DNA of 64,000 nucleotides from Natronospirales bacterium (GTDB lineage Bacteria; Pseudomonadota; Gammaproteobacteria; Natronospirales; REEB76), in contig JAJYUH010000001.1 in NCBI GenBank assembly GCA_021792635.1, forward strand, positions 280,710 through 344,709, read 5' to 3'. Below are positions 40,936 through 63,812 of the stretch, piece by piece. Under the pieces are notes generated by a model. The model was not told the DNA's origin, did no database searches, and saw nothing but the letters and a program-made list of their open reading frames with translations. Position 1 is the stretch's first letter; the number at the start of each line of letters is the position of its first letter. The translations under genes were made by a program, and so were the position numbers.

Positions 40936-41844
40936 GTGGCCGAGCGAATACCAACCTATCTGGCTCAACTGGAAGCGGAGAGCATCCACATCCTCCGCGA
41001 GGTGGCCGCGGAATTTGACAATCCCGTGATGCTGTACTCCATCGGCAAGGATTCCTCGGTGATGCTGCACCTGGCCCTGAAGGCCTTTTATCCGGCCAAG
41101 CCGCCGTTCCCGCTGCTGCACGTGGATACCACCTGGAAATTCCGCGACATGATCCGTTTCCGGGACGAGACCGCCAAACGGCTGAACCTCAAGCTGATCG
41201 TGCACATCAACGAAGAGGGGGTCCGCGCCGGCATCAACCCCTTCGACCACGGCAGCAAGAAGCACACCGACGTGATGAAGACCGAGGCACTCAAGCAGGC
41301 GCTGACCCGATACCGGTTTGACGCCGCTTTCGGCGGTGCGCGCCGCGATGAGGAGAAATCCCGCGCCAAGGAGCGCGTGTATTCGTTCCGCGATGCCAAT
41401 CACCGCTGGGACCCCAGGAACCAGCGTCCGGAATTGTGGCACCTGTACAACGGACGCATCAACAAGGGCGAAAGCATCCGCGTGTTCCCGCTCTCAAACT
41501 GGACCGAGCTGGATGTGTGGCAATACATTCACCAGGAAAATATTCCGGTGGTGCCGCTGTATTTCGCCAAACAGCGCCCGGTGGTGGAACGCGACGGGGC
41601 GCTCATCATGGTGGACGACGCACGCATGCGTCTCCATCCCGGTGAAGTCCCGCGCATGGAAATGGTGCGCTTCCGCACGCTGGGGTGCTACCCGCTGACC
41701 GGCGCCGTGCGCTCCCATGCCGCGACACTGCCGGAAGTGATTCAGGAAATGCTGCTGACGCGCACCTCCGAACGCCAGGGCCGCATCATTGACCATGACC
41801 AGGCCGGGTCCATGGAAGAAAAGAAGCGTGAAGGGTATTTCTGA
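40936..41844 (+). CDS. cysD: sulfate adenylyltransferase subunit 2
   Basis: GTG start gives a 302-aa protein, '[45 protein letters not shown]' (PAPS-reductase-fold 'SIGKDS'). The track start 40771 is rejected. Confidence 0.9.
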
Positions 41845-41845
41845 C

Positions 41846-43768
41846 ATGGCAGATCAGCAGCCACTTGTCCGCAGTGACATCGAAGCCTTCCTGGAACGGG
41901 ACCGGCGCAAGGAACTGTTGCGCTTCATCACCTGCGGCAGCGTGGACGACGGCAAGAGCACGCTCATGGGCAGGTTGCTGCATGACACCGACATGATTTT
42001 CGAGGACCAGTTGGCGGCACTGCAATCGGACAGCCGCAAGCATGGAACCACGGGCGACGATATGGATCTGGCCCTGCTCATGGATGGCTTGCAGTCCGAG
42101 CGGGAGCAGGGCATCACCATAGATGTCGCCTACCGCTATTTTTCCACGGAAAAGCGCAAATTCATCATCGCGGACACGCCGGGCCATGAACAGTACACCC
42201 GCAACATGGCCACCGGCGCTTCCACCGCCGATCTGGCGGTGATTCTGGTGGATGCGCGCAAGGGCGTGCTCACCCAGACCCGGCGGCACAGTTTTATCGT
42301 CTCCCTGCTGGGCATCCGCCACGCCATCCTCGCCGTCAATAAGATGGATACGGTGGAGTACGCGCGCAAGGTATTCGAGGAAATCTGCGCCGATTACCGG
42401 GCGCTGGCCGCCTCGCTCGGCCTTCCGGACATCCGCTTCGTGCCGGTTTCCGCGCTCAAGGGCGACAACGTCGTGCATCACGGCGCGGCCATGCCCTGGT
42501 ATCAGGGTGAGACCCTGCTCGAGATGCTGGAAACCGTCGAGATTGCAGAGGACATCAATTTCCGGGACCTGCGGTTGCCGGTGCAATACGTGAACCGGCC
42601 GAACCAGGACTTCCGCGGTTTCTGCGGCACCCTCGCCGCCGGTATACTGCGCAAGGGGGACAGCGTCATGGCGCTGCCGTCGCGCAAGTCCAGCCGGGTA
42701 AGCGCCATCGTTACCCATGACGGCGAACTGGAGACGGCGTTCGCCTCCATGGCGGTGACGGTTACGCTGGCGGACGAAATTGACATCAGCCGCGGCGACA
42801 TCCTGGTGCACGGCGAGCGGGCGCCGCACGTGGGCACCAGTCTGGACGCGTGGCTCATCTGGATGGCGGAGGCGCCGATGCTGCCGGGCAAGCAATACCT
42901 GTTCAAACTGGCCGCGAAAACCGCCGCCGGCGTGATCCAGAAGATTCATCACAGCGTGGACATCAACACGCTGGAGCAGCACCCCGCCGCGGAACTGGCG
43001 CTGAACCAGATCGCCCAATGCCGGGTGGTCCTGAGCGAACCGGTGGCGTTTGATCCGTATGCCCTCTCGCGCGTCACCGGCGGTTTCATCGTCATTGACC
43101 GCCTCACGAACGCCACCGTCGGCGCCGGCATGGTGACGCGCACCCTCACCTTGCCCCGGGAGGACCGTGTGCAGAATGTGGTATGGCACGAGCACAAGGT
43201 CAACCAGACCCTGCGCGCCAATCAAAAGGGCCAGCATCCCTGCGTACTCTGGCTGACCGGTCTTTCCGGCTCCGGCAAATCCACCATTGCCAACGCGCTG
43301 GAACAGCGGCTATTCCTGGAAGGCTACCATTCCTATCTGCTGGACGGCGACAATGTGCGCCATGGGCTCAACAAGGATCTGGGTTTCAGCGACGCGGCCC
43401 GCGTGGAAAATATCCGCCGCATCGGTGAGGTGGCAAGACTGTTCACGGATGCCGGACTGATCGTGATTACCGCGTTCATTTCGCCCTTTCGTGCCGACCG
43501 GCGCCTGGTGCGGGAACTCATCCCCGAGGGCGAATTCATCGAGGTGTTTCTGGATACGCCGATTGAGGTTTGTGAGCAACGCGACCCCAAAGGTTTGTAC
43601 CGCAAGGCGCGCGCCGGGCAGATCCGCAATTTCACCGGTATTGATGCGCCCTATGAACCGCCGCAAGCCGCCGAGCTGGTGCTGCACACCGCGGAAGACG
43701 ATGTGGCAGAATGCGTGGATCAGGTCATAGCGTACATGCGGCGCAACAGCATGCTGAAACACACCTGA
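41846..43768 (+). CDS. cysN: bifunctional sulfate adenylyltransferase subunit 1 / adenylylsulfate (APS) kinase (CysN-CysC fusion, NodQ-type)
   Basis: GTPase motifs '[10 protein letters not shown]', 'DTPGHEQY', 'NKMD'. C-terminal APS-kinase P-loop '[19 protein letters not shown]'. 640 aa. Confidence 0.9.
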
Positions 43769-43810
43769 ATCCCGCTGGGCGCGGCGATGACTGCCAAGGA
43801 CGGCGGAAAT

Positions 43811-43837
43811 GCAGATTTTGCAGGAGCAAAAATCTGC
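43811..43837 (+). other. 9-bp-stem hairpin in the cysNC / wbpA-like intergenic region
   Basis: GCAGATTTT-(9 nt)-AAAATCTGC. No downstream T-tract, so not a canonical intrinsic terminator. Confidence 0.4.
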
Positions 43838-43965
43838 CTTCGCCGCGATGGTGTAAGATTCACAATTTCGGTAGGAGCGGCGACATTCGCCGTGATGAAC
43901 GCCATCCGGCGGAAACACGGGGAGAATTCGCGACCCTCAGTTGCGGGCGCAGGATACCAGCGGAA

Positions 43966-45291
43966 ATGGCAAACTCTGACGACAATCAGCAGGAACGCTT
44001 GCTCAGGCGGTTGCGTGACCGCGAGGCCGTCATCGGCATCGTGGGTCTGGGTTACGTGGGCTTGCCGCTGATGCTGCGTTTCATCGAGAAAGGCTACCAG
44101 GTTATCGGCTTCGACATTGACCCGGACAAGGTGAAGGCTCTCGGAGAGGGGCGCAGCTATATCAAGCACATCGCCGCCGGAAAAATCGCCGCCGCCATCA
44201 AGGCGGGTTTCCTTCCCACCACAGACTTCGCGCGCGCTCGCGACGCGGATGCGCTCATCATCTGTGTTCCCACGCCGCTCAATAAGTATCGGGAGCCGGA
44301 TCTCTCATTCGTCACTGGCACCATGGATGAGCTGGTGCCGTATCTGCATGCGGGGCAAGTCGTTTCACTCGAAAGTACCACCTATCCGGGCACTACGGAT
44401 GAGGAACTCAAGCCGCGCATCGAGAGCCGCGGATTTGTGGTCGGCAAGGATGTGTTCCTGGTGTTCTCGCCCGAACGCGAAGACCCGGGCAATGTGGATT
44501 TCACCACCGGCGCCATACCTAAGATATGCGGCGGCGTGACGCCGGCATGCCGTGAGGCCGGCGTTGCCCTGTACGCCCAGGTCATTGACAAGGTGGTGCC
44601 CGTGAGTTCGACCCGCGTCGCGGAGATGACCAAGCTGCTGGAAAATATCCATCGTGCCGTCAATATCGGTCTCGTGAATGAAATGAAAATCGCCGCCGAC
44701 CGCATGGGCATTGATATCCGCGAAGTGATTGACGCCGCCGCCACCAAACCCTTCGGTTTCGTGCCGTACTATCCCGGTCCCGGGTTGGGCGGTCATTGCA
44801 TTCCGATCGATCCGTTTTATCTCACCTGGAAGGCGCGCGAGTATGGAGTGCATACGCGCTTCATCGAACTGGCCGGCGAAGTCAACAGTGCCATGCCGGA
44901 ATGGGTGGTATCAAAAATGGTGGATGGCCTGAACCAGCGGGGCCGGGCGCTGAAAGGCGGCCGTGTGTTGGTGCTCGGCATCGCCTACAAGAAAAACGTG
45001 GACGACACCCGCGAATCGCCGTCCGTGCATATCATGGGAATCCTGCGGCACAAGGGTGCCAGCGTGGAATACTCGGATCCCCATGTGCCCGTGTTTCCCA
45101 GGATGCGCGAGCACAGTTTCGATCTGCGCAGCGTTCCACTCACGGCTGAAAGCGTCGCCGCATATGACTGTGTATTGGTGGCGACAAACCATGACGGTTT
45201 TGACTACAAGCTGATTCAAAAGCACGCAAAACTGATTGTGGACAGCCGCGGCGTTTACCGCGGGCAGTATGATAATGTAGTCAAAGCTTGA
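43966..45291 (+). CDS. wbpA: UDP-N-acetyl-D-glucosamine 6-dehydrogenase-like nucleotide-sugar dehydrogenase
   Basis: '[15 protein letters not shown]' NAD fold, 'GGHCIPIDP' catalytic Cys. First of a WbpA/B/D/E-like gene series. The track start 43711 is rejected. Confidence 0.8.
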
Positions 45292-45304
45292 GGGCGGTAT
45301 TGAC

Positions 45305-46366
45305 ATGAACGGTAATTACAAAGCCATCCGTGACAGGAAAATCTGCTTTGCGCTTGTCGGTTGTGGGCGCATTTCCACGAAGCACTTCGAGTCCTTCCAG
45401 AAGCATGCAGAACACGCGGAACTGGTGGCAGTGTGTGACACCGATGCGACTGCGCTCAAGGCGGCCTGTGCCAGTACCGGAGCCCGGGGTTATCCAGGTC
45501 TCGACGCCATGCTGAAAGCAGGCGGTTTCGATGCCGTGGTGCTGGCCTCGCCCAGCGGCCTGCATGCGGATCAGGGTATTCAGGTGGCACGATCCGGCCA
45601 TCACATCATCACTGAGAAACCCATGGCCACCCGCTGGGAGGACGGCAAACGTCTCGTCAAAGCCTGTGATGACGCCGGTGTACGCTTGTTTGTGGTGAAG
45701 CAGAACAGGCGCAATGCCACTATCCAGTTGCTGAAGCGGGCCATCGAGGAACGCCGTTTCGGTCGCATCTACATGGTAAATGTCAACGTATTCTGGTCCC
45801 GTCCCCAATCCTATTACGACAGTGCCAAGTGGCGTGGTACCTGGGAGTTCGATGGTGGTGCCTTCATGAACCAGGCTAGCCACTATGTGGACCTGCTGGA
45901 CTGGCTGATCGGGCCGGTGGAGAGTGTACAGGCGTTCACGGCGACGTTGGCGCGCAACATTGAGGTGGAGGATACAGGCGTCCTGAGTATCAAATGGCGT
46001 TCCGGTGCGCTCGGCTCCATGAATGTGACCATGCTTACCTATCCTAAAAATCTGGAGGGCTCGATTACTATCCTGGGCGAAAAGGGGACGGTGCGTATTG
46101 GCGGTATGGCCGTCAACGAGATTCAACATTGGCAGTTTGCCGAACCGGATTCGGACGATGAGGTTGTCAAGAAAGCCAATTATGAAACCACCTCAGTGTA
46201 TGGCTTTGGCCATCCACTCTATTACGACAACGTCATCAGCACGCTGCGCGGCGAAGCTGAAGCTGAAACCGATGGCCGAGAAGGGCTGCGTTCGTTGGAA
46301 CTGTTGATAGCAGCTTATGTTTCAGCCCGCGACGGCCGCCGTGTCTCGCTACCACTGGAATACTGA
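45305..46366 (+). CDS. wbpB: Gfo/Idh/MocA oxidoreductase, WbpB-like (UDP-GlcNAcA 3-dehydrogenase)
   Basis: '[15 protein letters not shown]' Rossmann N-terminus and 'EKPMA' motif. Position between the wbpA-like and wbpD-like genes. Confidence 0.75.
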
Positions 46367-46377
46367 GGCCGCCTTAC

Positions 46378-46962
46378 GTGGGTTATACAGCGCATGAAAC
46401 CGCCATTATCGACACGGGCGCCCGTGTCGGGGATGGCACGCGCATCTGGCATTGGGTGCATATATGCAGTGGCGCAATGATCGGCGAGCGCTGTGTGTTT
46501 GGCCAAAATGTGTTCGTGGGTAATCGCGTAATTATCGGCAATAATGTCAAGATCCAGAACAACGTTTCCGTGTATGACAATGTCACGCTGGAGGATGATG
46601 TATTCTGTGGCCCCAGCATGGTGTTTACCAACGTTTATAATCCGCGTTCGGCGATAATCCGTAAAGATGAGTACCGCGATACGCTCGTTCGTCGTGGGGC
46701 GTCCCTGGGAGCCAATTGCACCATCGTATGCGGTGCCACCATCGGACAATATGCGTTCATAGGTGCTGGGGCGGTTGTCACTGGTGATGTCCCTGACTTC
46801 GCACTTATGGTCGGCGTACCTGCGCGGCCGATCGGCTGGATGAGCCGGTATGGGGAGCGCCTGGACTTGCCGGTGAATGGCCATGGAGCCGAGGCAACTT
46901 GCCCACACACCGGGGATTGCTATCGTCTGGTCAAGGATCGCTGCATGCTGATTCCGGCGTGA
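46378..46962 (+). CDS. wbpD: hexapeptide-repeat N-acetyltransferase, WbpD/WlbB-like
   Basis: 194 aa of left-handed beta-helix repeats ('[33 protein letters not shown]'). GTG start. Confidence 0.75.
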
Positions 46963-46986: not shown

Positions 46987-48072
46987 GTGGAATTCATTGA
47001 TCTCAAGACGCAATACCGCCGCATTGAACAGGATGTGAATCGCCGCATCAGGAGCGTGCTTGAGCATGGGCAGTATATTCTTGGGCCGGAAGTTGCCGAA
47101 TTGGAAGAACAGCTGGCGGCTTATGTGGGCGCTAAACACAGTATCGCCGTCTCTAGCGGCACGGACGCCTTGCTGATTGCCATGATGGCAGTGGGGGTGG
47201 GTCCAGGCGATGAAGTAATTACACCTGCCTTTACCTACATCGCCACCGCTGAGACCGCGCGTGTCCTGGGAGCTAAACCCGTGTGTGTGGATATTGACCC
47301 CAGGACCTATAACATTGATCCGGGCTTGATTGAAGCCGCGATTACTCCGAAGACCAAGGTTATCATCCCGGTTAGCCTCTACGGTCAATGTGCGGATATG
47401 GAAAGGGTCAATGCCATTGCTAGGAAGCACAATCTGCCCGTTATCGAGGATGCAGCCCAGAGTTTCGGCGCGACTTACAAGGGCAGAAAATCATGCAATC
47501 TATCCCTGATCGGCGCCACCAGCTTCTTCCCGTCAAAACCACTGGGTTGTTATGGCGACGGTGGCGCGTTGTTCACGAACGATGACGAACTGGCAATCGC
47601 CATGCGGCAAATCAGCCGCCACGGTCAGGACAGACGTTATCATCACATACGCGTGGGCGTGAATGGCCGTATCGATACTTTGCAGGCGGCAGTGTTGTTG
47701 GCAAAATTGCCGTTGTTTGATGAGGAAATAGCGAAGCGCGTGGAGATTGGCGGTCGTTATACAGAGATGCTTAATGGCAGCGTCAAAACGCCGTTCGTCA
47801 AGATGCACAATATCTCCGTTTATGCCCAATACACTGTGGCTGTGGACAATCGCGAACAGGTGATTTCTTCCCTGAAAAATGCTGGTATCCCAACCGCGGT
47901 CCATTACCCGCTGTCAATCCATCAACAGCCTGCATTTAGCGAATCAGGCATTCATTTACCGCACTCAGAACGCGCGGCGACCAGAGTCCTCAGTTTACCG
48001 ATGCATCCATATCTTGGGCGTGAAACGCAAACACGAGTTGTTGATGAATTGCGCGCTGCCCTGGAAGGCTGA
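46987..48072 (+). CDS. wbpE: DegT/DnrJ/EryC1-family PLP aminotransferase, WbpE-like
   Basis: 'MEFIDLKTQYRRIEQDV...' N-terminus, 'SFFPSKPLGCYGDGG' (PLP Lys). 361 aa. GTG start. Confidence 0.8.
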   Translation: MEFIDLKTQYRRIEQDVNRRIRSVLEHGQYILGPEVAELEEQLAAYVGAKHSIAVSSGTDALLIAMMAVGVGPGDEVITPAFTYIATAETARVLGAKPVCVDIDPRTYNIDPGLIEAAITPKTKVIIPVSLYGQCADMERVNAIARKHNLPVIEDAAQSFGATYKGRKSCNLSLIGATSFFPSKPLGCYGDGGALFTNDDELAIAMRQISRHGQDRRYHHIRVGVNGRIDTLQAAVLLAKLPLFDEEIAKRVEIGGRYTEMLNGSVKTPFVKMHNISVYAQYTVAVDNREQVISSLKNAGIPTAVHYPLSIHQQPAFSESGIHLPHSERAATRVLSLPMHPYLGRETQTRVVDELRAALEG

Positions 48073-48286: not shown

Positions 48287-49198
48287 ATGTACAATTGCCT
48301 TTTCGAAGAACCCTGGTGGCTGGATGCGGTCGCTCCTGGAGCATGGCATGAAGTGACTGTTGAAAAGGGTGGGGTTATCTACGCCAGGCTTCCATTTGTG
48401 CTGCGCCGGCGATTTGGCCTCAGAATGGTAACCATGCCAAGCCTGACACAGACGCTTGGTCCCTGGTTAAGGCTGGATTCACCGAAGTATGTGAATCGTC
48501 TGGCATTGGAAAAGGAATTGATGCTTTCTCTGATTGAGAAATTACCGAAGTACGATATTTTTTTTCAGAACTTTCATTCCTCGATTACCAACTGGCTGCC
48601 GTTTTATTGGAGTGGATACTCTCAAACTACCCGATATACCTATGTCATAAGTAACGCGCGATCGCTTGAAGAAATATGGTCATGTATGAGTGACAAGACG
48701 CGCAACGAAATCAGGAAGGCTGAGAATAAACATGGATTAAGAGTAGAGGAGAAGCGGGATCTTGACGCTTTATACAATCTTATTGTGGCAACATTCAGCC
48801 GGCAGGGGAAATCGGTACCGTATTCAAGAGCGCTGCTTGAACGAATTGAATCGGCGTGCACGGCAAGAGGGCGTGGACAGACATTTATATGTAGCGACGG
48901 ATACGGCAAGCGGTGTGCGGCAATCTATGTAGTGTGGGATCAAAAATCAGCCTATTATCTTTTAAGTGGCAGCGATCCAAAATTGAGAAACACGGGCGCA
49001 TTGAGTTTCCTGCTGTGGCACGCAATTAAATACCTGCATTCGAGAACAGCGTGCTTCGACTTTGAAGGTAGTTGGGTACAATCCATCGAAAGTCATTTTC
49101 GCAGTTTCGGTGGGAATCAAACACCATATTTCAACATCACGCGGGCCAACAGTCTTGGCAGAATTTATCTCAAAGCTCGGACTAGATTTCGTCGGTAA
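48287..49198 (+). CDS. FemAB-like/GNAT (Acetyltransf_6-like) protein
   Basis: 303 aa. Overall resemblance to EPS-cluster FemAB-type acyl/aminoacyl transferases ('AIYVVWDQKSAYYLLSGSD...'). By-eye call only. Confidence 0.4.
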   Translation: MYNCLFEEPWWLDAVAPGAWHEVTVEKGGVIYARLPFVLRRRFGLRMVTMPSLTQTLGPWLRLDSPKYVNRLALEKELMLSLIEKLPKYDIFFQNFHSSITNWLPFYWSGYSQTTRYTYVISNARSLEEIWSCMSDKTRNEIRKAENKHGLRVEEKRDLDALYNLIVATFSRQGKSVPYSRALLERIESACTARGRGQTFICSDGYGKRCAAIYVVWDQKSAYYLLSGSDPKLRNTGALSFLLWHAIKYLHSRTACFDFEGSWVQSIESHFRSFGGNQTPYFNITRANSLGRIYLKARTRFRR

Positions 49199-51522: not shown

Positions 51523-51523
51523 G

Positions 51524-52822: not shown

Positions 52823-52823
52823 C

Positions 52824-56078: not shown

Positions 56079-57356
56079 ATGAATGACGAGAATATAATGG
56101 CACGCCGCCAGGCCAGCATTGCAATTTCCTATGAAAGGCTATCCAAGTGGGCCGGAATGATGTTTTCTATTCAGTTTGTAGGAGTGAACCTTGCTTCGGA
56201 CTTATTCAGAATATCCGGTGCGCAACACAGCGATATCGTTACCGCGATCATTTTGTATGTTCCCACGGTGATCGCACTTTGTTTATTGACACCCAGTACC
56301 ATAAAAACGAAACATGGCTATCACATCTATCTTTGTTTGTGGCTGGTTATCTGCCTGACCGTTATATGGTTTGTTGTGGATAGTTTGCACGCTTCGGATA
56401 TTGCTTTGCAGACGGCTTATGATCTCAAGCGGCCTTACTTCTTTGTACAAGGAGTCACCTTGGCAGGGTTGGTCGGGTTGTTTGCAGTCACAAGTTGGCG
56501 TTCCTTCGCGCTGTCCTTCATGAAGTGGACGTTGGCGTCAAGTATCTTGGCATGTGGCTTATACCTATCAATCTATCATATGAATACGAGTGTTGGCCGG
56601 TTTGCGGGCGCTACGGCCTTGCAGCACGCTATCGTATTCAGCGCTGGGATATCTTGTGCGTTTGCTTTCCTGTTTCTTGCTGCAAAAGGATTGTTCCGGA
56701 GCAGGTTATTTACAATGCCGGTGCTTTGGGCGTCCATCATTTTTCTGACCACGGGCATCTTGGCTTCCGGGACACGCGCTGCTTTGCTCGGGGCGATGGT
56801 TTCTGGGGCGGCGTATATTGTTCTCATGTCGAAACGTGGTAGGTTTCGACGCGTAATCATTGTCATGTCGGGGCTGGTTTTTATCTCTGCCATCGCAATC
56901 CAGTGGGTCCCGCATGACTCGATTGATAGAGTGAGTCAAATCGAGGTAGGCGGACTAAATCAGCGAATCAAATTGATTGATCTGTCCTTTATCAGTTTCG
57001 AGAATCATCCGTTTGGTAAAACACGCCAATATATGCGGGCACTGGATGGCCAGAATTATGCCCACGACACAATATTGCAGATGCTTTTGGAGACCGGCGT
57101 TGTCGGCGCTCCCATTCTTTTCATCATCGTGATTCTTGCCGTGAGGGGTGCTTTCAAGTATTTCCGATCTGATCCAATAATGTCCGGGTTTATGCTTGTC
57201 TTGTTCTACTTCGTTCTACAATCTTTTTCGTCAGGCAGTGCGTATAATACGGAATTCTGGTTTTCGGTTGTATTCCTTGCGGCACTCACAAAACGTAATC
57301 TTATTGATAACCTGCAACCAGCGTTTACCATCATGGGGAAGTCAAACAGTGCATGA
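56079..57356 (+). CDS. wzy: O-antigen polymerase/ligase-family membrane protein (Wzy-like)
   Basis: More than 10 TM helices. 'SGTRAALLGAMVSGAAYIV' resembles the Wzy_C/O-antigen-ligase loop region. AT-rich gene. Confidence 0.6.
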   Translation: MNDENIMARRQASIAISYERLSKWAGMMFSIQFVGVNLASDLFRISGAQHSDIVTAIILYVPTVIALCLLTPSTIKTKHGYHIYLCLWLVICLTVIWFVVDSLHASDIALQTAYDLKRPYFFVQGVTLAGLVGLFAVTSWRSFALSFMKWTLASSILACGLYLSIYHMNTSVGRFAGATALQHAIVFSAGISCAFAFLFLAAKGLFRSRLFTMPVLWASIIFLTTGILASGTRAALLGAMVSGAAYIVLMSKRGRFRRVIIVMSGLVFISAIAIQWVPHDSIDRVSQIEVGGLNQRIKLIDLSFISFENHPFGKTRQYMRALDGQNYAHDTILQMLLETGVVGAPILFIIVILAVRGAFKYFRSDPIMSGFMLVLFYFVLQSFSSGSAYNTEFWFSVVFLAALTKRNLIDNLQPAFTIMGKSNSA

Positions 57357-57454: not shown

Positions 57455-58324
57455 ATGTCGGAACCTAAAGTGGATGAGACAACCTCATACCAAGAAGCAA
57501 CAGTTGTTTGCCCATTATGTGGGGATAATAATTTCTTATTATGGGCAACAGAGAATGGATATCGTGCGGTAAAGTGTTCGAATTGCGGCTTGATTTATGT
57601 CAATCCCCGTCCCCCACTTCAGACAATTGCTGAAGCCATTCGTACTGGCGTACACAGGGAAGAACTGTTAAATCTCAATGTTGTTGCCAGGCGCATTCCC
57701 GGTAAGGTTGCGCACTATAAAAGGATAATATCTGAAATGTTTGCTGATATATTTAGAAAAAACCAATCGATATGCTGGCTGGATGTTGGTGCTGGTTATG
57801 GAGAGATAGTTGAAGCGATTTCTGATATTGCACCGACTGGTAGTCGTATTGAAGGAATAGAGCCGATGAAGCCCAAGGTTTATCAAGCAATTTCTAGAGG
57901 ACTTTTGATAAAGGAAGGTTATATTACTGACATAAATAATAAATATAATTATATATCGATTATCAATGTGTTTTCTCACATCCCGGATTTTAGGTTGTTT
58001 CTTCAAGATATTAAGAAAGTGATGTTACCTCACGCGGAAATCCTAATTGAGACTGGCAATGCAGCGGATGTTGGTGAAAGGAAACATTTTCCTGGCGAGC
58101 TGAATTTGCCGGATCATTTGGTTTTTGCTGGCGAAGAACATATCCGACGCTATCTTGCAGAGAGTGGTTTTGAACTTCTAGCAATAAAACGCCTGCGAAT
58201 TGATGATATTGGCTGGTTTATGAAAAATACCATCAAATCCATTATTGGCCGGCGGGTGGCATTAAGATTGCCTTATACATCACCAAGTCGAACACTTTTA
58301 TTTCGGGCTCGCCTAGTGGCGTGA
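57455..58324 (+). CDS. class I SAM-dependent methyltransferase with N-terminal zinc ribbon
   Basis: 'CPLCG...CSNCGLIYVNP' plus motif I 'WLDVGAGYGEIVEAI'. 289 aa. Most AT-rich gene in the window by eye. Confidence 0.6.
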   Translation: MSEPKVDETTSYQEATVVCPLCGDNNFLLWATENGYRAVKCSNCGLIYVNPRPPLQTIAEAIRTGVHREELLNLNVVARRIPGKVAHYKRIISEMFADIFRKNQSICWLDVGAGYGEIVEAISDIAPTGSRIEGIEPMKPKVYQAISRGLLIKEGYITDINNKYNYISIINVFSHIPDFRLFLQDIKKVMLPHAEILIETGNAADVGERKHFPGELNLPDHLVFAGEEHIRRYLAESGFELLAIKRLRIDDIGWFMKNTIKSIIGRRVALRLPYTSPSRTLLFRARLVA

Positions 58325-58382
58325 GCACCTATATTTGGTGATAGTTTGCGCTTTAGCACCTAAGGATGTAGATATCGTGTCA

Positions 58383-59402
58383 ATGAATAAATACATAATC
58401 CTCGTAACCGGCGGCACCGGCTCGTTTGGCAAGACGGTTACAGAATATCTCCTTAAACGCGGTTGTCCTGAAATACGGGTGTTCAGCCGGGATGAAGACA
58501 AACAGAACAGCATGCGGATTGCCATGCATGACCCCCGGGTTAAATTTTACCTTGGCGATGTGCGGAATCGGGACAGCGTTGACAAGGTTATGAAAGGCGT
58601 GGATTACGTATTCCACGCGGCGGCCCTGAAGCAGGTGCCTTCCTGTGAGTTCTTTCCGATGGAAGCGGTGCGCACGAACGTTGTAGGTAGTACGAACGTC
58701 CTGGATTCTGCCATCGAACACGGCGTCAAGGGCGTGGTTTGTCTGAGCACCGACAAAGCGGTATATCCCATCAATGCCATGGGCATGTCAAAAGCACTGA
58801 TGGAGAAAGTCGCGCAGGCCACTTCACGCAACACGCCGGTGGGCGGCACCATTATTTCGTGCGTGCGCTATGGAAACGTGATGTATTCACGGGGCTCCGT
58901 GATTCCCCTTTTCATTAAACAGCTAAAAGAAGGTATGTCGCTCACCGTCACCGAGCCGGACATGACACGTTTCATGCTGGCACTCACGGACGCGGTTGAT
59001 CTGGTGGAATATGCCTTCCAGAATGCGCGGCCGGGAGACGTCTTTGTGCGCAAGGCCCCTGCCTGCACCATTGGCGATCTGATCAAGGCGCTCAAGAAGC
59101 TTTTCAAAGCCGATAATCCGGTCAAGATCATCGGCATGCGTCATGGCGAAAAGCTTTACGAAACACTCGTAAATGCGGAGGAACGTCTGCGCGCCGACGA
59201 CTTGGGTGAGTATTACCGTATCCGCATGGATGACCGGGATTTGAATTATGCGAAGTACTTTTCAGAAGGAGAACCACAGGAAGCGGCGACCGAGGACTAT
59301 CATTCCCATAATACGCGCCGTCTCAGCGTAAACGAGATTGAAGAGCTGCTCTTGAAATTGCCGGAAGTCCAGCAGGAGCTGGCCGCATGGCAGGCGCATT
59401 GA
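58383..59402 (+). CDS. fnlA: UDP-N-acetylglucosamine 4,6-dehydratase/5-epimerase (FnlA/CapE/WbjB)
   Basis: Long collinear identity by eye to S. aureus Cap5E: 'LVTGGTGSFG', 'VDYVFHAAALKQVPSCEFFPMEAV', 'CLSTDKAVYPINAMGMSKALMEKV'. Confidence 0.9.
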   Translation: MNKYIILVTGGTGSFGKTVTEYLLKRGCPEIRVFSRDEDKQNSMRIAMHDPRVKFYLGDVRNRDSVDKVMKGVDYVFHAAALKQVPSCEFFPMEAVRTNVVGSTNVLDSAIEHGVKGVVCLSTDKAVYPINAMGMSKALMEKVAQATSRNTPVGGTIISCVRYGNVMYSRGSVIPLFIKQLKEGMSLTVTEPDMTRFMLALTDAVDLVEYAFQNARPGDVFVRKAPACTIGDLIKALKKLFKADNPVKIIGMRHGEKLYETLVNAEERLRADDLGEYYRIRMDDRDLNYAKYFSEGEPQEAATEDYHSHNTRRLSVNEIEELLLKLPEVQQELAAWQAH

Positions 59403-59433
59403 ATAGGGCGTGCCTTTCCGGAGACGCCAAGTA

Positions 59434-60546
59434 ATGCGGACAGTGGCCATAACCGGTGCGGGGGGGTTTCTGGCTTGGCATTTACGCTGCCGGCTGCATG
59501 CCTTGGGCTGGCGTGCGCCGTTACTGTTGAACCGCGAGATATGGTCCGACGTTGAACGGCGCCGTGATTTGCTTCGGCAAGCAGACGTAGTGGTGCATCT
59601 TGCCGGGGTCAATCGTGCAAATCCGGATGAGGTCGAGCAAGGCAATATCAAGCTCGCCAAGGAACTGGCCGAAGCGCTGGACACAGCCGGCGTGAAGCCG
59701 CAAGTGGTGTATGCGTCCACGACTCACATCGAGCGCGGAACCGCCTATGGTTTGGGGAAACGCCGTGCCGGCGAGATTCTCGGCGAATGGGCTGGACGAA
59801 ATCACGCGACGTTTGCCAATCTGGTCATACCGCATGTATTCGGTGAACAATGCCGGCCTTTCTATAATTCCGCGGCGGCCACTTTCTGTTATCAGATCGC
59901 CAACGGTCAGGAGCCGATTGTCGAAAACAACGGCCAGCTTGAGCTCCTGCACGCCCAGGATGTTTGCACGGCGATCATGCGGGCGATTGAAGGTTGCGTC
60001 AATGACAGTATCCGGCTCACAGGCCATCCGATCACGGTTGTCGAGATGCTCGATCAGGTGCGGTCGCTGGACAGGAGCTATCGCAACAACATTATTCCCG
60101 ACCTTCGCGATCGCTTCACATTGCAACTTTTCAACACCTATCGCGGGTATCTGTTCCCGAAACACTATCCTGTACGACTGAAATTGCACACCGATAATCG
60201 AGGTGGATTGTTTGAGGCCGTAAAGGGCGACAACGGCGGTCAGGCGTTTCTTTCCACAACAAAGCCGGGTATCACACGCGGCAACCATTACCATATCAAC
60301 AAAGTTGAGCGGTTCCTGGTTGTTGAAGGTGAAGCCGTTATCAAGGTCCGCAAGCTGTTCAATGACGAAATACATGAATTCATGGTCAGCGGCGCAGCCC
60401 CGGTGTATATAGACATGCCGACGCTGCATACGCACAATATCACCAACACGGGTTCCGGAACACTGCTCACGATGTTCTGGAGTCATGAAATATTCGACCC
60501 GACAAATCCGGATACCGTCCGTGAGCCGGTTCAACATCAGGGATAG
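59434..60546 (+). CDS. fnlB: UDP-2-acetamido-2,6-dideoxy-hexulose reductase/epimerase (FnlB/CapF/WbjC)
   Basis: N-terminal SDR 'ITGAGGFLAWHL...VHLAGVNR' and C-terminal cupin 'KPGITRGNHYHINKVERFLVVEG'. Matches Cap5F organisation. Confidence 0.85.
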   Translation: MRTVAITGAGGFLAWHLRCRLHALGWRAPLLLNREIWSDVERRRDLLRQADVVVHLAGVNRANPDEVEQGNIKLAKELAEALDTAGVKPQVVYASTTHIERGTAYGLGKRRAGEILGEWAGRNHATFANLVIPHVFGEQCRPFYNSAAATFCYQIANGQEPIVENNGQLELLHAQDVCTAIMRAIEGCVNDSIRLTGHPITVVEMLDQVRSLDRSYRNNIIPDLRDRFTLQLFNTYRGYLFPKHYPVRLKLHTDNRGGLFEAVKGDNGGQAFLSTTKPGITRGNHYHINKVERFLVVEGEAVIKVRKLFNDEIHEFMVSGAAPVYIDMPTLHTHNITNTGSGTLLTMFWSHEIFDPTNPDTVREPVQHQG

Positions 60547-60549
60547 CAG

Positions 60550-61692
60550 ATGAAACGCCTGAAAGTGATAACCATTCTTGGCACGCGACCGGAGATTATT
60601 CGATTGTCGCGAGTCATGGCGGCGCTCGACCGTTATACCGATCACAAGATCGTACACACCGGACAAAACTACGATTACGAACTGAACGAGGTGTTTTTCA
60701 AGGAGCTGGAGATACGAACACCGGATGTGTTCCTGAACGTCGATACTAGCAGCCTCGGGACGGTGCTTGGCAATATCCTTATCTCCATCGAGAAGGTATT
60801 TCGCGAGGATCGGCCGGATGCCGTGCTGATCCTGGGCGACACGAACAGTTCCATTGCAGCCATCATGGCCAAACGCATGAAGATTCCCGTGTATCACATG
60901 GAAGCCGGCAACCGCTGCTTCGACCCGAACGTTCCTGAAGAAACAAATCGCAAGATCGTGGACCGCATCAGTGATTTCAATCTTGTCTATACGGAACATG
61001 CCCGCAGACATCTTCTCTCAGAAGGCCTGCCGCATCGCAGAATTTATCTGACAGGGTCGCCCATGCGCGAGGTGCTGGATCATTACCGGGAGAAGATAGA
61101 ATCCTCAGATGCACTTACACGTCTTGCGCTCAAGCCACGGCAGTTCGTTCTCGTCAGCATGCACCGGGAGGAAAATGTGGATGACAGAGGGAGTCTGCTG
61201 AAGCTGCTGGATGCGCTGGCTGGCTTGCATGGGAAGTATAAATACCCGGTTATTATCTCCACCCACCCGCGAACCCATCAGCGGATGGAGGCGCTTGAAG
61301 ACTATAAACCATCAGATGGCTTGCGTTTTGTGAAGCCATTTGGCTTCCTTGATTACATTAAATTGCAGACCCAGGCGTTCTGCGTGGTGTCTGACAGCGG
61401 CACTATCAGTGAGGAGTCGTCTATTCTGGGGTTCCCAGCTATTACCGCACGTAATGCCATGGAACGCCCGGAGGCGCTCGATGCCGGCGGCATCATACTG
61501 ACTGGACTGGATTGTGATGTCATTCTTCAGGCTGTTGAAGTGGTGACCGATCAAAATAAACGTGGCGTCCGGGCTCCGCTGCCCGATGAATACGCGATGA
61601 CCAACGTTTCCCAACGCGTGGTGAACCTGATCCTTGGTACCGCCAGGCTGAGCAATGCCTGGGACGGTCTGCTGCGTCACGATTACGATTGA
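60550..61692 (+). CDS. fnlC: non-hydrolysing UDP-HexNAc 2-epimerase (FnlC/CapG/WbjD)
   Basis: 'GTRPEIIRLS', 'HTGQNYDY', 'ILGDTNS', 'HMEAGNRCFD.NVPEE.NRKIVD' are collinear with Cap5G. Confidence 0.9.
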   Translation: MKRLKVITILGTRPEIIRLSRVMAALDRYTDHKIVHTGQNYDYELNEVFFKELEIRTPDVFLNVDTSSLGTVLGNILISIEKVFREDRPDAVLILGDTNSSIAAIMAKRMKIPVYHMEAGNRCFDPNVPEETNRKIVDRISDFNLVYTEHARRHLLSEGLPHRRIYLTGSPMREVLDHYREKIESSDALTRLALKPRQFVLVSMHREENVDDRGSLLKLLDALAGLHGKYKYPVIISTHPRTHQRMEALEDYKPSDGLRFVKPFGFLDYIKLQTQAFCVVSDSGTISEESSILGFPAITARNAMERPEALDAGGIILTGLDCDVILQAVEVVTDQNKRGVRAPLPDEYAMTNVSQRVVNLILGTARLSNAWDGLLRHDYD

Positions 61693-61720
61693 CTAAGCCG
61701 AGACGGAATCGGCGTCGTTA

Positions 61721-62965
61721 ATGCGCATCCTCGCGATACACCGTTATTACTGGCCCGATACGCCGCCATACGCTTCGATGCTGCGGGCGATCGCAGAAAC
61801 GTTGGTTACGAGTGGGCATGAAGTCACCGTATTTACCACACAACCCTCATATAAACCTGGATTTCGCATCCCGAGACAAAGACGCGATGAAATAATGAGC
61901 GGGGTGCGTATCCTGCGTATGGGCCTCCTTCCAGAGATGAAGAAGAACATACTGCTGCGCGCGCTCAATCTCGCGCTCTTCATGGCAGGTATTATGGCTC
62001 ACGTCGTCTTTCGGCGTCGGTATGATGCCATCATGGCCTCTACGGCTCCCGCGGTTATGGTTGGGTTGGCCGCGCGGTGGGTTGCAAGGCTTACGGGCGC
62101 GCGGTTCGTGTATCACTGCCAGGATATACACCCGGAACTCGGCCGTTTGTCCGGGCATTTTCGCAATCAACTCGTGTACCAATCACTCTTGGGCATCGAT
62201 TCCGCGAACTGCAATGCCGCCGTGGCGGTCGTAGTGTTGTCCACGGACATGCGTGCGGCAATTCAGGCACGGATAGGTTACATCGGCAAGGACAACATTC
62301 ATGTCATCAACAATTTCAGCCTGCCAGTGTTCCCCGGCGCAGAAACGTATGGAATCCAGCCGAAGCTGGCAGAGGAACTGTTGCCGCCTTCAGACAGGAT
62401 GCGGATGATATTCGCCGGGAACATTGGCCGCTTCCAGGGCCTGGATGTGATACTCGATGCTTTCCAGACTGCAAAACATCGTGCGGCTATGGAGCTGGTG
62501 TTCTTGGGTGAAGGGTCGGAACTTGACAGGCTGCAGGATAAAGTGACCGCTGCGAAGTTGCGTGATGTTCGCTTCATCCCGCACCAGCCCGTGGATGTCG
62601 CGAAAACATTGATTGAAAGATGTGATCTTTGCCTGGTAAGCCTCATACCCCACATATACAAATACGCCTATCCGAGCAAGACGATGACCTGTCTGGAACT
62701 CGGCAAACCAATTCTTGCCATTGTGGAACCGGACAGCGAACTCGCGCGATTCGTGACAGACAACGAGATTGGTTATGCAGCATCGCTGGAAGACGTCGGT
62801 TCGATTGCTCGGACGATGGATATGGCATGGGAGCACCGTGCAGCTTTGTCCGTGATGGCGTCTAACGCCAGCCGCATCTGGGCAGCGACTTACAGTCCGG
62901 AAAATGTGCTCCCAAGATGGGCCGAACTGTTCGGCCGAATCCAGGGGAATGCCCGGAATGTATAA
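61721..62965 (+). CDS. GT4 glycosyltransferase, WbuB-like (putative L-FucNAc transferase)
   Basis: 'MRILAIHRYYWPDTPPYASML' N-terminus is typical of WbuB-type enzymes. Lies immediately after fnlABC, as in L-FucNAc-containing O-antigen loci. Confidence 0.7.
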   Translation: MRILAIHRYYWPDTPPYASMLRAIAETLVTSGHEVTVFTTQPSYKPGFRIPRQRRDEIMSGVRILRMGLLPEMKKNILLRALNLALFMAGIMAHVVFRRRYDAIMASTAPAVMVGLAARWVARLTGARFVYHCQDIHPELGRLSGHFRNQLVYQSLLGIDSANCNAAVAVVVLSTDMRAAIQARIGYIGKDNIHVINNFSLPVFPGAETYGIQPKLAEELLPPSDRMRMIFAGNIGRFQGLDVILDAFQTAKHRAAMELVFLGEGSELDRLQDKVTAAKLRDVRFIPHQPVDVAKTLIERCDLCLVSLIPHIYKYAYPSKTMTCLELGKPILAIVEPDSELARFVTDNEIGYAASLEDVGSIARTMDMAWEHRAALSVMASNASRIWAATYSPENVLPRWAELFGRIQGNARNV

Positions 62966-63812
62966 ACCGGTTGTCATTATCGGGGCACCGCGCTCTGGCA
63001 CCAACATGTTGCGCGATACGCTCACCGTTATGCCTGGAGTGGGTTCCTGGCCCTGCGATGAGATCAACTACATATGGAGGCATGGGAATCTGCATCACCC
63101 ATCCGATGAGTTTAAGCCGGAGATGGCGACGGATCGGATACGGCGGTACATAAGAGGGCGGTTCGATGATCTGGCAAAGAAAGGTCCATTCGAGTTTGTA
63201 GTCGAGAAGACGTGCGCGAACTGCCTGCGGGTAGGTTACGTGGATCGGGTACTGCCGGAGGCAACCTATATCTACATCGTGAGAGACGGCCTTGACGTTG
63301 TCGCTTCAGCTATACAACGCTGGCATGCGTCACTTGATCTCCGATATGTGCTGGCAAAAGCAAGATTTGTCCCATGGCAGGACGTACCCTATTACGCATC
63401 ACGGTATCTTGGAAACCACATACACAGACTTCTCTCCAGGGAGAAACGGCTGGCCTTCTGGGGACCAAAAATGGATTCGATGGACGAAATCCTGTCGAGA
63501 TATTCAATTGATGAAGTGTGCGCTTTGCAATGGAAGGCATGTATAGAGGCATCGGATGAGTTCTTTTCGCGGCATGCGCAGGATAGAGTCATCCGTGTGA
63601 GTTATGAATCGTTCGTGCGCGAACCGCGGGTCGAACTGGAGAGGATATGCGGGTTCACCGGCATAAGGTTCGATGCGGAAGCGGCAAGTAACCAGTTGAA
63701 AGGCATATCCGCCGGTAGCATTGGCAAGGGCAGGCGACAGTTCAATCAGGCGGCAATCGAAAGATTAACAAGGCTAATCGGTGCAACGTTGCATGGACAT
63801 GGATATATATAG
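62958..63812 (+). CDS. PAPS-dependent sulfotransferase
   Basis: 5'-PSB loop 'IIGAPRSGTNMLRDTL' and 3'-PB motif 'YIVRDGLDVVAS'. ATG 62958 overlaps the upstream gene by 8 nt. Confidence 0.75.
   Translation: MYKPVVIIGAPRSGTNMLRDTLTVMPGVGSWPCDEINYIWRHGNLHHPSDEFKPEMATDRIRRYIRGRFDDLAKKGPFEFVVEKTCANCLRVGYVDRVLPEATYIYIVRDGLDVVASAIQRWHASLDLRYVLAKARFVPWQDVPYYASRYLGNHIHRLLSREKRLAFWGPKMDSMDEILSRYSIDEVCALQWKACIEASDEFFSRHAQDRVIRVSYESFVREPRVELERICGFTGIRFDAEAASNQLKGISAGSIGKGRRQFNQAAIERLTRLIGATLHGHGYI

Follow-up and report, generated by a model that had tools for sequence, protein, structure and literature searches.

A predicted sulfated O-antigen locus combining a native cysD-cysNC pair with a horizontally spread sulfotransferase cassette

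Results

Organisation of the locus

Within the window (the whole stretch of DNA analysed, 64,000 nt, from an uncultured gammaproteobacterium), cysD and a cysN-cysC fusion (cysNC) are flanked by two wzz genes on the 5′ side and by ~19 co-oriented glycan genes on the 3′ side (Table 1), the placement between wzz and nucleotide-sugar genes that an earlier note had described. CysD and CysNC scored above NCBIfam equivalog or subfamily cut-offs; the fusion, which begins 1 nt past the cysD stop, contains APS_kinase (236 bits) and GTP_EFTU (153.7 bits) domains, and the APS kinase motifs (P-loop GLSGSGKST, DGD, FISPF, FTGID) are intact in its translation. No cysH/I/J or sulfate ABC transporter genes were found among the scanned window ORFs (some small ORFs lay outside the scan), in keeping with the statement that the pair does not sit among sulfur-assimilation genes.

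The two Wzz proteins share 45% identity and have nearly identical termini. Among the genes 3′ of the pair, the real start of the Wzx-type flippase gene is probably 3′ of that called, the AsnB-like protein probably serves in uronamide formation, the Wzy_C membrane protein is read as the O-antigen polymerase (the alternative being a ligase), and the WbuB/WcaI-family protein is presumed to be a 6-deoxy-L-HexNAc transferase. The best NCBIfam match of the FnlA-like protein, TIGR04130 at 451 bits, fell below the equivalog cut-off of 730. The locus had been thought to end with the sulfotransferase gene, but a Bac_transf initiating transferase gene follows it and runs past the window edge; in L001, which matches the window at 96.9% nt identity over 60760–64000, this gene encodes a 198-aa PF02397 protein and is followed by a DegT aminotransferase gene.

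Table 1. Features of the cysD-cysNC and glycan region, in window coordinates.
Feature	Position	Strand	Evidence
wzz1, O-antigen chain-length determinant (PCP-1 type)	38125..39318	+	PF02706 Wzz 37 bits; GC3 0.69
wzz2, second chain-length determinant	39486..40769	+	PF02706 Wzz 33.6 bits; GC3 0.81, core-like
cysD, sulfate adenylyltransferase small subunit, GTG start	40936..41844	+	NF009214 CysD 538.7 bits (cut-off 413); GC3 0.80
cysN-cysC fusion, ATP sulfurylase GTPase subunit + APS kinase	41846..43768	+	NF004035 1022 bits (cut-off 715)
Structured 197-nt spacer, cysNC to wbpA	43769..43965	+	RNA fold z = -4.0 vs shuffles
wbpA-like UDP-N-acetyl-hexosamine 6-dehydrogenase	43966..45291	+	TIGR03026 415 bits; 79% identity to L086 gene, same position
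wbpB-like GFO/IDH/MocA oxidoreductase	45305..46366	+	PF02894, PF01408, PF22725; 82% identity in L086
wbpD-like hexapeptide N-acetyltransferase	46378..46962	+	PF00132 Hexapep; 81% identity in L086
wbpE-like DegT aminotransferase	46987..48072	+	PF01041 407.8 bits; 79% identity in L086
GNAT/FemAB-like acyltransferase	48287..49198	+	PF13480 56.6 bits
Possible methyltransferase	49268..49978	+	Weak: sub-threshold methyltransferase and DOT1 matches only
DUF7033 / polysaccharide-deacetylase-like protein	50083..51522	+	PF23019 90.7 bits; PF01522 weak
Wzx-type flippase	51434..52822	+	PF13440 Polysacc_synt_3 47.7 bits; 58% identity in L086
AsnB-like glutamine amidotransferase	52824..54731	+	TIGR01536 404 bits; PF00733, PF13537
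GT4 glycosyltransferase	54778..55920	+	PF00534, PF13439
Membrane protein with Wzy_C domain	56079..57356	+	PF04932 44 bits
SAM-dependent methyltransferase	57455..58324	+	PF13489 55.2 bits; GC3 0.34, locus minimum
FnlA-like UDP-GlcNAc 4,6-dehydratase/5-epimerase	58335..59402	+	TIGR04130 FnlA 451 bits; PF02719 334 bits
FnlB/WbcJ-like reductase	59410..60546	+	NF047837 235 bits, below cut-off 500
FnlC-like non-hydrolysing UDP-HexNAc 2-epimerase	60550..61692	+	TIGR00236 254.7 bits (cut-off 210)
WbuB/WcaI-family GT4 glycosyltransferase	61721..62965	+	NF007640 WcaI family 125.9 bits, below cut-off; PF13579, PF00534
Cytoplasmic PAPS-dependent sulfotransferase, 284 aa, Sulfotransfer_3	62958..63812	+	PF13469 85.5 bits; PF00685 42.4 bits
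PglC-type (Bac_transf) initiating phosphoglycosyl transferase, 5′ end	63825..64000, past window edge	+	L001 match

The sulfotransferase and its family

The sulfotransferase exceeded the cut-offs of both its Pfam families (PF13469, 27 bits; PF00685, 22 bits), matched no NCBIfam model, and belongs to an uncharacterised subfamily of Sulfotransfer_3. Both PAPS-binding motifs reported for it were recovered, GAPRSGTN at residues 9–16 (5′-PSB) and VRDGLDVVAS at residues 108–117 (3′-PB), with key residues invariant in 34 homologues, and its profile matches TPST1/2 across both. The protein has no N-terminal hydrophobic segment. Its AF2 model (pLDDT 92.8) found PAP-bound TPST1/2 as best PDB folds, at a TM of about 0.64, and the top structural matches were all PAP/PAPS-bound sulfotransferases. 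The 8-nt overlap with the WbuB-like glycosyltransferase gene likewise holds, given ATG 62958 as the start, and gene calls in a 97% relative give the same 8 nt.

The family is large: 597 representatives were found at E ≤ 1e-30. Its members are spread over 259 or more GTDB species, some of them non-marine (Gallionella, Acidobacteriota), and with the published cases given below this weakens the idea that the sulfated-glycan design is uncommon outside rhizobia and marine bacteria. A PglC-type initiating transferase gene comes after the sulfotransferase gene in 61/71 loci (GTDB species, several phyla), followed in frequency by a DegT gene after it (52/71) and a wbuB homologue directly 5′ (28/71), and the fnlABC-wbuB-ST arrangement occurs in about 30/80 loci. 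The usual setting of the family is an ST-PGT-aminotransferase cassette, often with fnlABC-wbuB 5′; Marinobacter nauticus ABH-585 and Alcanivorax sp. IL2 are culturable bacteria that have it. This cassette, horizontally spread and here accompanied by fnlABC-wbuB, is the serotype-specific part of the locus.

Inheritance of cysD-cysNC

The sulfate-activating pair has a different history. Its GC3 (0.80) is close to the core mean (0.82), compared with 0.34–0.65 for the glycan genes from wbpB to the sulfotransferase, and CysNC identity across the lineage falls smoothly (99, 94, 79–72, then 67–65%), whereas for the sulfotransferase the step below 97% is already 60%. In five relatives (L002, L003, L004, L085 and L086) cysD identity is 83–97%. 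L004 aligns with the window at 95.6% nt identity only over 40789–43828, with different genes on both sides. A 47-nt hairpin element (43802–43848) within the cysNC-wbpA spacer, which has no Rfam match, is 100% identical in L004, the sequence 3′ of it being unrelated; the spacer apparently forms the left boundary of the glycan region that varies among strains. In Competibacteraceae, the cysD-cysNC orthologue is followed by the housekeeping genes ABC-F, rnhA and dnaQ, and fused CysNC is common without glycan context, a sulfotransferase being nearby in only 3/38 control loci. The pair is therefore vertically inherited and compositionally native, the variable glycan locus of the lineage having been built around it, and a mobile, cassette-borne duplicate is rejected. 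As cysD-cysNC lies outside the mobile glycan cassette, the NodPQ pattern with which the earlier note had compared it, that of a cassette-type PAPS module, is not followed. Composition, phylogeny-like identity decay and synteny suggest that cysD-cysNC is most likely also the general sulfate-activating enzyme of the cell.

The core-like composition, vertical decay, persistence of the pair while adjacent glycan genes swap, Competibacteraceae gene order and control loci also argue against a dedicated, NodPQ-like second copy making PAPS for glycan sulfation only, with an assimilatory cysDN (or sat) elsewhere in the genome, as does the fact that many Gammaproteobacteria, e.g. Pseudomonas, carry just one cysNC fusion gene and use APS reductase for sulfate assimilation. 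We consider such a copy doubtful, although it would suit a pair placed inside the glycan locus (wzz to wbpA), with assimilation genes not found nearby, and the packing seen in relatives at 72–78% CysNC identity, in which glycan genes start 13–35 nt past cysD-cysNC; moreover, the capsule locus of Vibrio sp. KMM 8419 has second copies of cysC, cysN and cysD (PMC11641403).

A model for O-antigen sulfation

The reading we prefer, at a probability of roughly 0.7, is that of a Wzx/Wzy-dependent O-antigen locus with cytoplasmic O-sulfation of the repeat unit, for which the native cysD-cysNC supplies PAPS. CysD and CysN, identified by family scores, would make APS from sulfate, which the CysC domain of the fusion would phosphorylate to PAPS. 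From PAPS, the soluble sulfotransferase would move sulfate onto the undecaprenyl-diphosphate-linked oligosaccharide ahead of Wzx flipping, likely candidates for the acceptor being the 6-deoxy-L-HexNAc that WbuB attaches and the adjacent reducing-end sugar, and the sulfated unit would be polymerised by Wzy to a chain length set by both Wzz proteins.

PAPS genes and a sulfotransferase inside a polysaccharide cluster are a known design: chemically verified sulfated capsules are encoded by clusters with cysN/C, cysD and sulfotransferases in Vibrio sp. KMM 8419 (PMC11641403) and Cobetia marina KMM 1449 (PMC11766843). Since this Wzx/Wzy cluster holds PAPS genes and a glycan-type sulfotransferase, the predicted surface polysaccharide is very probably sulfated, a prediction that is sound but, the arrangement having already been described in marine bacteria, not surprising. 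Of the earlier proposal, the sulfated Wzx/Wzy glycan is supported by family, fold, motifs and comparative context, but the NodPQ logic, the locus end and the rarity are not.

It is less probable again that the adjacency is incidental, with a purely housekeeping cysD-cysNC lying beside a hypervariable O-antigen region and uncoupled from it beyond a cell-wide PAPS pool. O-antigen loci of other bacteria are likewise bordered by conserved genes, and the pair is a conserved island of native composition, separated from its neighbours in the window by gaps of 166 nt on one side and 197 nt on the other; no promoter or terminator pattern is prominent around it in either direction. Against this, 14/80 loci (species) encode an APS kinase domain no more than 10 kb from the sulfotransferase gene, versus about 0.33 expected, an enrichment of about 40-fold among loci that are phylogenetically non-independent (6/14 Halomonadaceae) but span at least six family-level lineages, with varying arrangements. 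Among the 14, Alcanivorax and Thalassobacillus have a stand-alone cysC, the PAPS-specific step, inside their sulfotransferase loci, and in one Alcanivorax locus cysC adjoins a gene for an SLC13/Na-sulfate-symporter-like transporter. A glycan locus also lies directly beside cysD-cysNC in 4/4 close relatives with long flanks, those at 72–78% CysNC identity, and in three of these (L002, L003 and L085) it includes sulfotransferases; in the fourth (L086), which has the most similar locus head, none occurs in the 10 kb visible, a view too short to weigh given that the window's own lies 19 kb past cysNC.

An acceptor other than O-antigen (protein tyrosine, as for RaxST/TPST, lipid A or core, or a small molecule) is very improbable: the closest matches of known structure are tyrosylprotein sulfotransferases and polyketide sulfotransferase domains, with carbohydrate sulfotransferases not among them, but identity to these is only about 16–18%, the locus Pfam/NCBIfam annotation contains no RaxX-like peptide or RaxAB-like exporter gene, the gene overlaps that of a glycosyltransferase and is so often followed by an initiating transferase gene, and NodH, a carbohydrate sulfotransferase, also belongs to PF13469 (PMC11625862).

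A predicted sulfated O-antigen

The glycan encoded from position 38125 to the window end, an O-antigen by its gene content, is predicted to be sulfated, a prediction that is well supported and to which a probability of roughly 0.7 is given. All substantial genes of this stretch lie on the forward strand (see table; Pfam and NCBIfam assignments), and the single co-oriented locus (38125-64000) contains nucleotide-sugar genes, glycosyltransferases, export and assembly functions, PAPS genes and a sulfotransferase (ST). The set of components for Wzx/Wzy-dependent O-antigen synthesis is present: a Wzx-like protein, a Wzy_C protein (putative Wzy), two Wzz proteins and an initiating phosphoglycosyl transferase (PGT).

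Features of the window, with family assignments, bit scores and third-position GC content (GC3).
Feature	Position	Strand	Assignment	GC3
Aryl-polyene/xanthomonadin-like cluster	8-17120	+		
GGDEF and oxidoreductase genes	22893-31921			
Ten upstream core genes (mean)				0.82
Terminator after ssb	35897-35929			
Gene pair between ssb and wzz1	36146-37436			0.54-0.57
wzz1	38125-39318	+	PF02706	0.69
wzz2	39486-40769	+	PF02706	0.81
cysD (GTG start)	40936-41844	+	NF009214, 538.7 bits (cut-off 413)	0.80
cysN-cysC fusion (cysNC)	41846-43768	+	NF004035, 1022.3 bits (cut-off 715); TIGR00455 apsK, 275.5 bits (cut-off 138.7)	0.80
Spacer cysNC-wbpA	43769-43965			
47-nt hairpin	43802-43848			
wbpA-like dehydrogenase	43966-45291	+	family match	0.71
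wbpB-, wbpD-, wbpE-like genes	after wbpA	+	family matches	
GNAT/FemAB-like, weak methyltransferase-like and DUF7033/deacetylase-like genes	next	+		
Wzx-type flippase, AsnB-like amidotransferase, GT4 glycosyltransferase	next	+	PF13440 (flippase)	
Wzy_C membrane protein (putative Wzy or ligase)	next	+	PF04932 (Wzy_C)	
Methyltransferase gene of low GC (0.41)	57455-58324			0.34
FnlA-, FnlB-, FnlC-like genes	next	+	family matches	
WbuB/WcaI-family GT4	61721-62965	+		
ST, 284 aa	62958-63812	+	PF13469, 85.5 bits (cut-off 27); PF00685, 42.4 bits (cut-off 22)	
wbpB through ST (range)				0.34-0.65
Bac_transf (PglC-type) initiating transferase	start 63825; runs past the window end (64000)	+		

By family assignment, the wbpABDE-like genes and an AsnB-like amidation step would form a pathway resembling that to a UDP-2,3-diacetamido-uronic acid, and the FnlABC-like genes one resembling that to a UDP-6-deoxy-L-HexNAc. 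FnlA was the best match for the dehydratase (451 bits, cut-off 730), the FnlB-like gene matched WbcJ at 235 bits (cut-off 500) and the FnlC-like 2-epimerase scored 254.7 bits against a wecB cut-off of 210; these enzymes could make L-FucNAc or another 6-deoxy-L-HexNAc related to it.

An earlier note had reported two PAPS-binding motifs in the sulfotransferase, an 8-nt overlap of its gene with that of the WbuB-like glycosyltransferase, and cysD with a CysN-APS-kinase fusion between the wzz genes and the nucleotide-sugar genes. The motifs read in translation as quoted, the overlap is present (a 97% relative has the genes called with the same overlap), and the PAPS genes are borne out by family scores and intact motifs, which together confirm the observation. 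The sulfotransferase is not, as had been thought, the end of the locus: the initiating transferase follows it, and in L001, a locus with 96.9% nt identity to the window across 60760-64000, the PGT is succeeded by a DegT aminotransferase.

The ops/JUMPstart core GGCGGTAG had a single occurrence, no more than chance would give, at 34231 and thus not within the locus; Rfam gave no match at gathering thresholds, and only chance-level ones, within 35.8-44.2 kb; and promoter and terminator scans returned counts within or close to those of shuffles, the sole convincing terminator being that after ssb. The spacers flanking cysD-cysNC (166 nt and 197 nt) have no clear terminator in either.

The two wzz genes are 45% identical, with near-identical N- and C-terminal (transmembrane) ends and a central periplasmic part differing in sequence and length, which suggests either gene conversion at the ends or a swap of the middle; the tandem pair also suggests two O-antigen modal lengths. 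The low-GC methyltransferase gene, its GC3 far under that of the other foreign-looking glycan genes, is probably the latest acquisition in the locus.

The sulfotransferase belongs to an uncharacterised subfamily

ST is a predicted PAPS-dependent sulfotransferase of an uncharacterised subfamily, comprising 597 representatives at E ≤ 1e-30 (50% clustering) and 2372 at E ≤ 1e-10; no NCBIfam model matched it. The 5'-phosphosulfate loop (PxxGTx) is represented by GAPRSGTN at residues 9-16 and the 3'-phosphate motif (R-x7-S) by RDGLDVVAS at residues 109-117, and across 34 homologues G9, A10, P11, R12, S13, G14, T15, N16, R109, G111, D113 and S117 were invariant, as were the segments WPCDEINY, EKTC, WGP and CALQW. 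A profile built from these homologues matched TPST1/2 (E about 1e-9), in an alignment spanning both PAPS-binding motifs. The AF2 model (pLDDT 92.8, pTM 0.90) has the sulfotransferase alpha/beta fold; when it was compared with the PDB by Foldseek, the best 50 of 138 matches (E ≤ 0.001) were all sulfotransferases, the top one being PAP-bound TPST (E = 7.5e-9, TM 0.63-0.66), and the closest neighbours among the matches listed were TPST, CurM ST, Stf9 and HS 3-OST, all PAP- or PAPS-bound.

TPST1/2, the nearest solved structures, have the fold and both motifs in common with ST, and their GEETR segment, which we take to carry the catalytic Glu, aligns with the invariant D34-E35 segment (WPCDEINY). 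However, identity is only about 16-18% (TM about 0.64), and TPSTs are Golgi-membrane enzymes with peptide substrates, whereas the gene context of ST is wholly glycan-related. A RaxST-like protein sulfotransferase was dismissed on that gene context. ST has no N-terminal hydrophobic segment and should therefore act in the cytoplasm, the site of PAPS synthesis.

cysD-cysNC is a native island in a variable region

The CysNC translation retains G1, G3 and G4 GTPase motifs and the P-loop, DGD and FISPF of an APS kinase, as these motifs are known from E. coli CysN and CysC. CysNC identity declines smoothly, from metagenome contigs (99% and 94%) through 'Gammaproteobacteria bacterium' MAGs (79-72%) to Candidatus Competibacter and Competibacteraceae (67-65%) and Alkalilimnicola (65%); ST, by contrast, goes in one step from 97% to 60%, and its best matches include Desulfobacterales. 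In L004, a locus sharing these PAPS genes, 95.6% nt identity to the window is confined to 40789-43828: on the 5' side lie ssb and then a single, unrelated wzz, and on the 3' side the sequences diverge about 60 nt past the cysNC stop, where L004, after a common hairpin, encodes an AbrB/MazE-like protein. GC3, the identity series and above all L004 thus mark cysD-cysNC as a conserved native island within a strain-variable glycan region; the pair does not travel with the cassette. The co-inheritance with its pathway expected of a NodPQ-type module was not found, L004 having kept the pair with both flanks replaced and other relatives joining it to rhamnose loci (below). The proposal of an embedded NodPQ-like module is right only in part: the same three lines of evidence speak, indirectly, against an extra copy next to a housekeeping assimilatory cysDN.

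The spacer between cysNC and wbpA folds far better than shuffles (z = -4.0) and had no match in Rfam. It contains a 47-nt hairpin that recurs at 100% identity in L004, with unrelated sequence beyond; a second, degenerate copy lies about 130 nt upstream in L004. Placed where the variable region starts, the element may be regulatory or may mark a junction formed by recombination.

Relatives join cysD-cysNC to various glycan genes, with a gap of 13-35 nt between cysNC and the first of these in four closer relatives. In three loci the partner is an ABC-transporter-type rhamnose locus, not a Wzx/Wzy locus: L002 ((DegT, MTase, ST, WbqC)-ssb-cysD-cysNC-rmlACDB-wzm-wzt-ST-ST-GT), L085, which comes from GCA_036383255.1 (ST-DegT-...-ST-ST-uvrA(-)-ssb-cysD-cysNC-rmlACDB-two PF00884 genes-wzm-wzt-ST) and L003 (cysD-cysNC-rmlACDB-ABC-...-ST-like-GTs). 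The order in L086 is wzz-cysD-cysNC-wbpA-wbpB-wbpD-wbpE-wzx-asnB-..., its WbpA, B, D and E being 79-82% identical to those of the window (WbpA 79%); the terminal 40-mer of L086 had no exact match in metagenome_contigs. Two Competibacteraceae loci (L087, L088) have, in this order, EPS genes, cysD-cysNC and ABC-F-rnhA-dnaQ.

Two further features of these regions were observed. The two PF00884 (Sulfatase-family) genes of L085 (15293-19595 of that locus) are large, lie between rmlB and wzm in an ST-rich, cysD-cysNC-anchored glycan locus, and could encode sulfatases or, since the superfamily includes them, phospho-transferases. In the window, a low-GC3 pair between ssb and wzz1 comprises a nucleotidyltransferase (Polbeta/NTP_transf_2) with a MarR-like HTH overlapping a 140-aa ORF without family match; it looks like a toxin-antitoxin pair and is absent from that position in L002, L085 and L004.

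The sulfotransferase accompanies glycan initiation across phyla

When GTDB was scanned with one genome for each species, 259 species had an ST relative, none above 59% identity, and 80 loci were kept. These include Halomonas, Chromohalobacter, Alcanivorax, Marinobacter and Kangiella, Gallionella and Thiothrix, as well as Desulfobacterales, Acidobacteriota, Planctomycetes, a cyanobacterium and Thalassobacillus. Judged against the window proteins, about 30/80 loci have the cassette fnlA-fnlB-fnlC-wbuB-ST. Among the 71 loci with sufficient flank, a PglC-type transferase lay directly 3' of ST in 61, a DegT aminotransferase 3' of it in 52, and wbuB directly 5' in 28, so that the PglC-type transferase and 4-aminotransferase-like DegT are more constant partners than the L-FucNAc genes. 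Across phyla, ST thus belongs constantly to a cassette for glycan initiation, a strong argument for a lipid-linked sugar as acceptor and against a protein or small molecule. Most of the value of this comparison lies in the large uncharacterised subfamily that it defines, in a recognisable ST-PGT-aminotransferase cassette, whose chemistry is directly testable in culturable carriers (Marinobacter nauticus, Alcanivorax, Halomonas, Chromohalobacter and Thalassobacillus). The fnlABC-wbuB-ST-PGT form of the cassette is carried by, among others, Marinobacter nauticus ABH-585, Alcanivorax sp. IL2, Halomonas koreensis DSM 23530 and Chromohalobacter nigrandesensis DSM 14323.

The constancy of PGT and DegT, and the finding of no N-acetyltransferase in the three cassettes inspected (L001; L054, from Marinobacter nauticus; L038, from Alcanivorax sp. 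IL2), would fit a family that sulfates the reducing-end 4-amino-4,6-dideoxy-HexNAc itself, even by N-sulfation of the free 4-amino group to a sulfamate. This is very improbable; to our knowledge no bacterial surface glycan carries such a sulfamate. A literature search yielded no example of sulfated FucNAc among marine O-polysaccharides.

PAPS genes accompany the family more often than expected. An APS-kinase domain was found ≤10 kb from ST in 14/80 loci, which are not phylogenetically independent (six are Halomonadaceae), against about 0.33 expected for a single-copy gene, given 1.31 Mb of flank and 4-Mb genomes. The link occurs in at least six family-level lineages, in differing arrangements: cysD or cysN was also near in 9/14, and cysC stood alone in five (three Alcanivoracaceae, two Thalassobacillus). 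The Alcanivorax sp. IL2 locus ends with ST-PGT-DegT-Wzx-WbpM-like dehydratase, an SLC13/Na-sulfate-symporter-like transporter and CysC, and in Marinobacter nauticus ST-PGT-DegT is followed by an insertion, then a DHH/DHHA1 protein and cysD-cysN-cysC. A metagenome scan with CysNC gave only relatives of 55-60% identity, which served as a background control and were not counted with the lineage; among 38 such loci with a fused CysNC and a length of 12 kb or more, only 3 had a detectable sulfotransferase nearby, so that a fused CysNC by itself does not diagnose glycan sulfation.

The transporter at the Alcanivorax locus end, SLC13/CitMHS with TrkA_C and Na_sulph_symp domains, adjoins the stand-alone cysC (L038, 17050-20106). 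The Marinobacter DHH/DHHA1 protein, immediately 5' of cysD-cysN-cysC (L054, 16091-20594), may be an NrnA-type pAp phosphatase.

Comparison with known systems

The earlier note also overstated the rarity of a sulfated-glycan design: ST relatives occur in at least 259 species, and PAPS genes with a sulfotransferase in a polysaccharide locus are already published for marine bacteria. Cobetia marina KMM 1449 has cysN/cysC, cysD, cysQ, a sulfate permease and a sulfotransferase within its CPS cluster (PMC11766843), and Vibrio sp. KMM 8419 carries three sulfotransferases, one of them in the adjoining O-antigen operon, together with second copies of cysC, cysN and cysD (PMC11641403); the sulfated capsules of both marine strains are chemically proven (PMC11641403, PMC11766843). 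As in the window, nucleotide-sugar, glycosyltransferase, export, PAPS (cysD; cysN/cysC fused in Cobetia) and sulfotransferase genes share one locus. However, theirs are ABC-transporter (Kps) capsule loci of marine hosts, whereas the window locus, whose sulfated product is a prediction, is of Wzx/Wzy/Wzz O-antigen type and belongs to an uncultured gammaproteobacterium with Competibacteraceae as its nearest named relatives. The cys genes of the Vibrio strain are described as second copies, whereas the window pair looks native and may be the sole copy, and the cysQ and sulfate permease of the Cobetia module were not seen in the window.

An older analogue is the rhizobial NodPQ/NodH logic. NodP/NodQ with NodH, and likewise LPS/K-antigen sulfation (LpsS, KpsS), use ATP sulfurylase and a CysN-APS-kinase fusion to feed PAPS to a cytoplasmic PF13469-type carbohydrate sulfotransferase, as is predicted for the window. 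NodPQ are extra, plasmid-borne copies, whereas the window cysD-cysNC appear to be a vertically inherited chromosomal resident. ST would form a separate, uncharacterised subfamily; NodH falls in the same Pfam family, PF13469 (PMC11625862).

Pseudomonas aeruginosa O-antigen clusters also resemble the window locus, as judged by domain and family matches. The O11-type order is wbjBCD-wbjE ... wbpL-wbpM and the O5-type has wbpABDE; the window resembles the former in FnlA/B/C-like genes, a WbuB/WbjE-like transferase and then an initiating transferase, and the latter in wbpA/B/D/E-like genes for a 2,3-diacetamido uronic acid; a leading wzz is shared too. It differs in that ST has been inserted after the L-HexNAc transferase, ahead of the initiating one, that cysD-cysNC stand between wzz and wbpA, and that a small PglC-type PGT takes the place of a WbpL/WecA-type enzyme.

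Proposed pathway and context

In the proposed pathway to a sulfated O-antigen, the CysD/CysN ATP sulfurylase and CysC APS kinase, so identified by family assignment, would supply PAPS, with which ST would sulfate the repeat unit while this is linked to Und-PP on the cytoplasmic side; the sulfated unit would then be flipped, polymerised and set in length by the two Wzz paralogues. cysD-cysNC probably also serve assimilation. If this is true, a Wzx/Wzy O-antigen from a lineage near Competibacteraceae joins the short list of bacterial sulfated surface glycans. In the EPS of granular sludge, sulfated glycoconjugates are reported to be chemically widespread, while the sulfotransferases that make them are not known (PMC10483923); loci like that of the window are candidate sources, a plausible ecological connection.

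Two regions lie upstream of the glycan locus. The aryl-polyene/xanthomonadin-like lipid biosynthesis cluster includes a PPTase, KS-like genes (PF13723; PRK09185 and PRK09116 beta-ketoacyl-ACP synthases), FabG2, an aromatic ammonia-lyase, an AMP-binding enzyme, acyltransferases, a GT2-acyltransferase fusion, a LolA-like protein, an MMPL/RND transporter and DUF3261. In the second, GGDEF-EAL and GGDEF genes are divergently arranged, and next come a GltD-like NAD(P)-binding Fe-S protein and an alpha/beta pair of 2-oxoacid:acceptor oxidoreductase.
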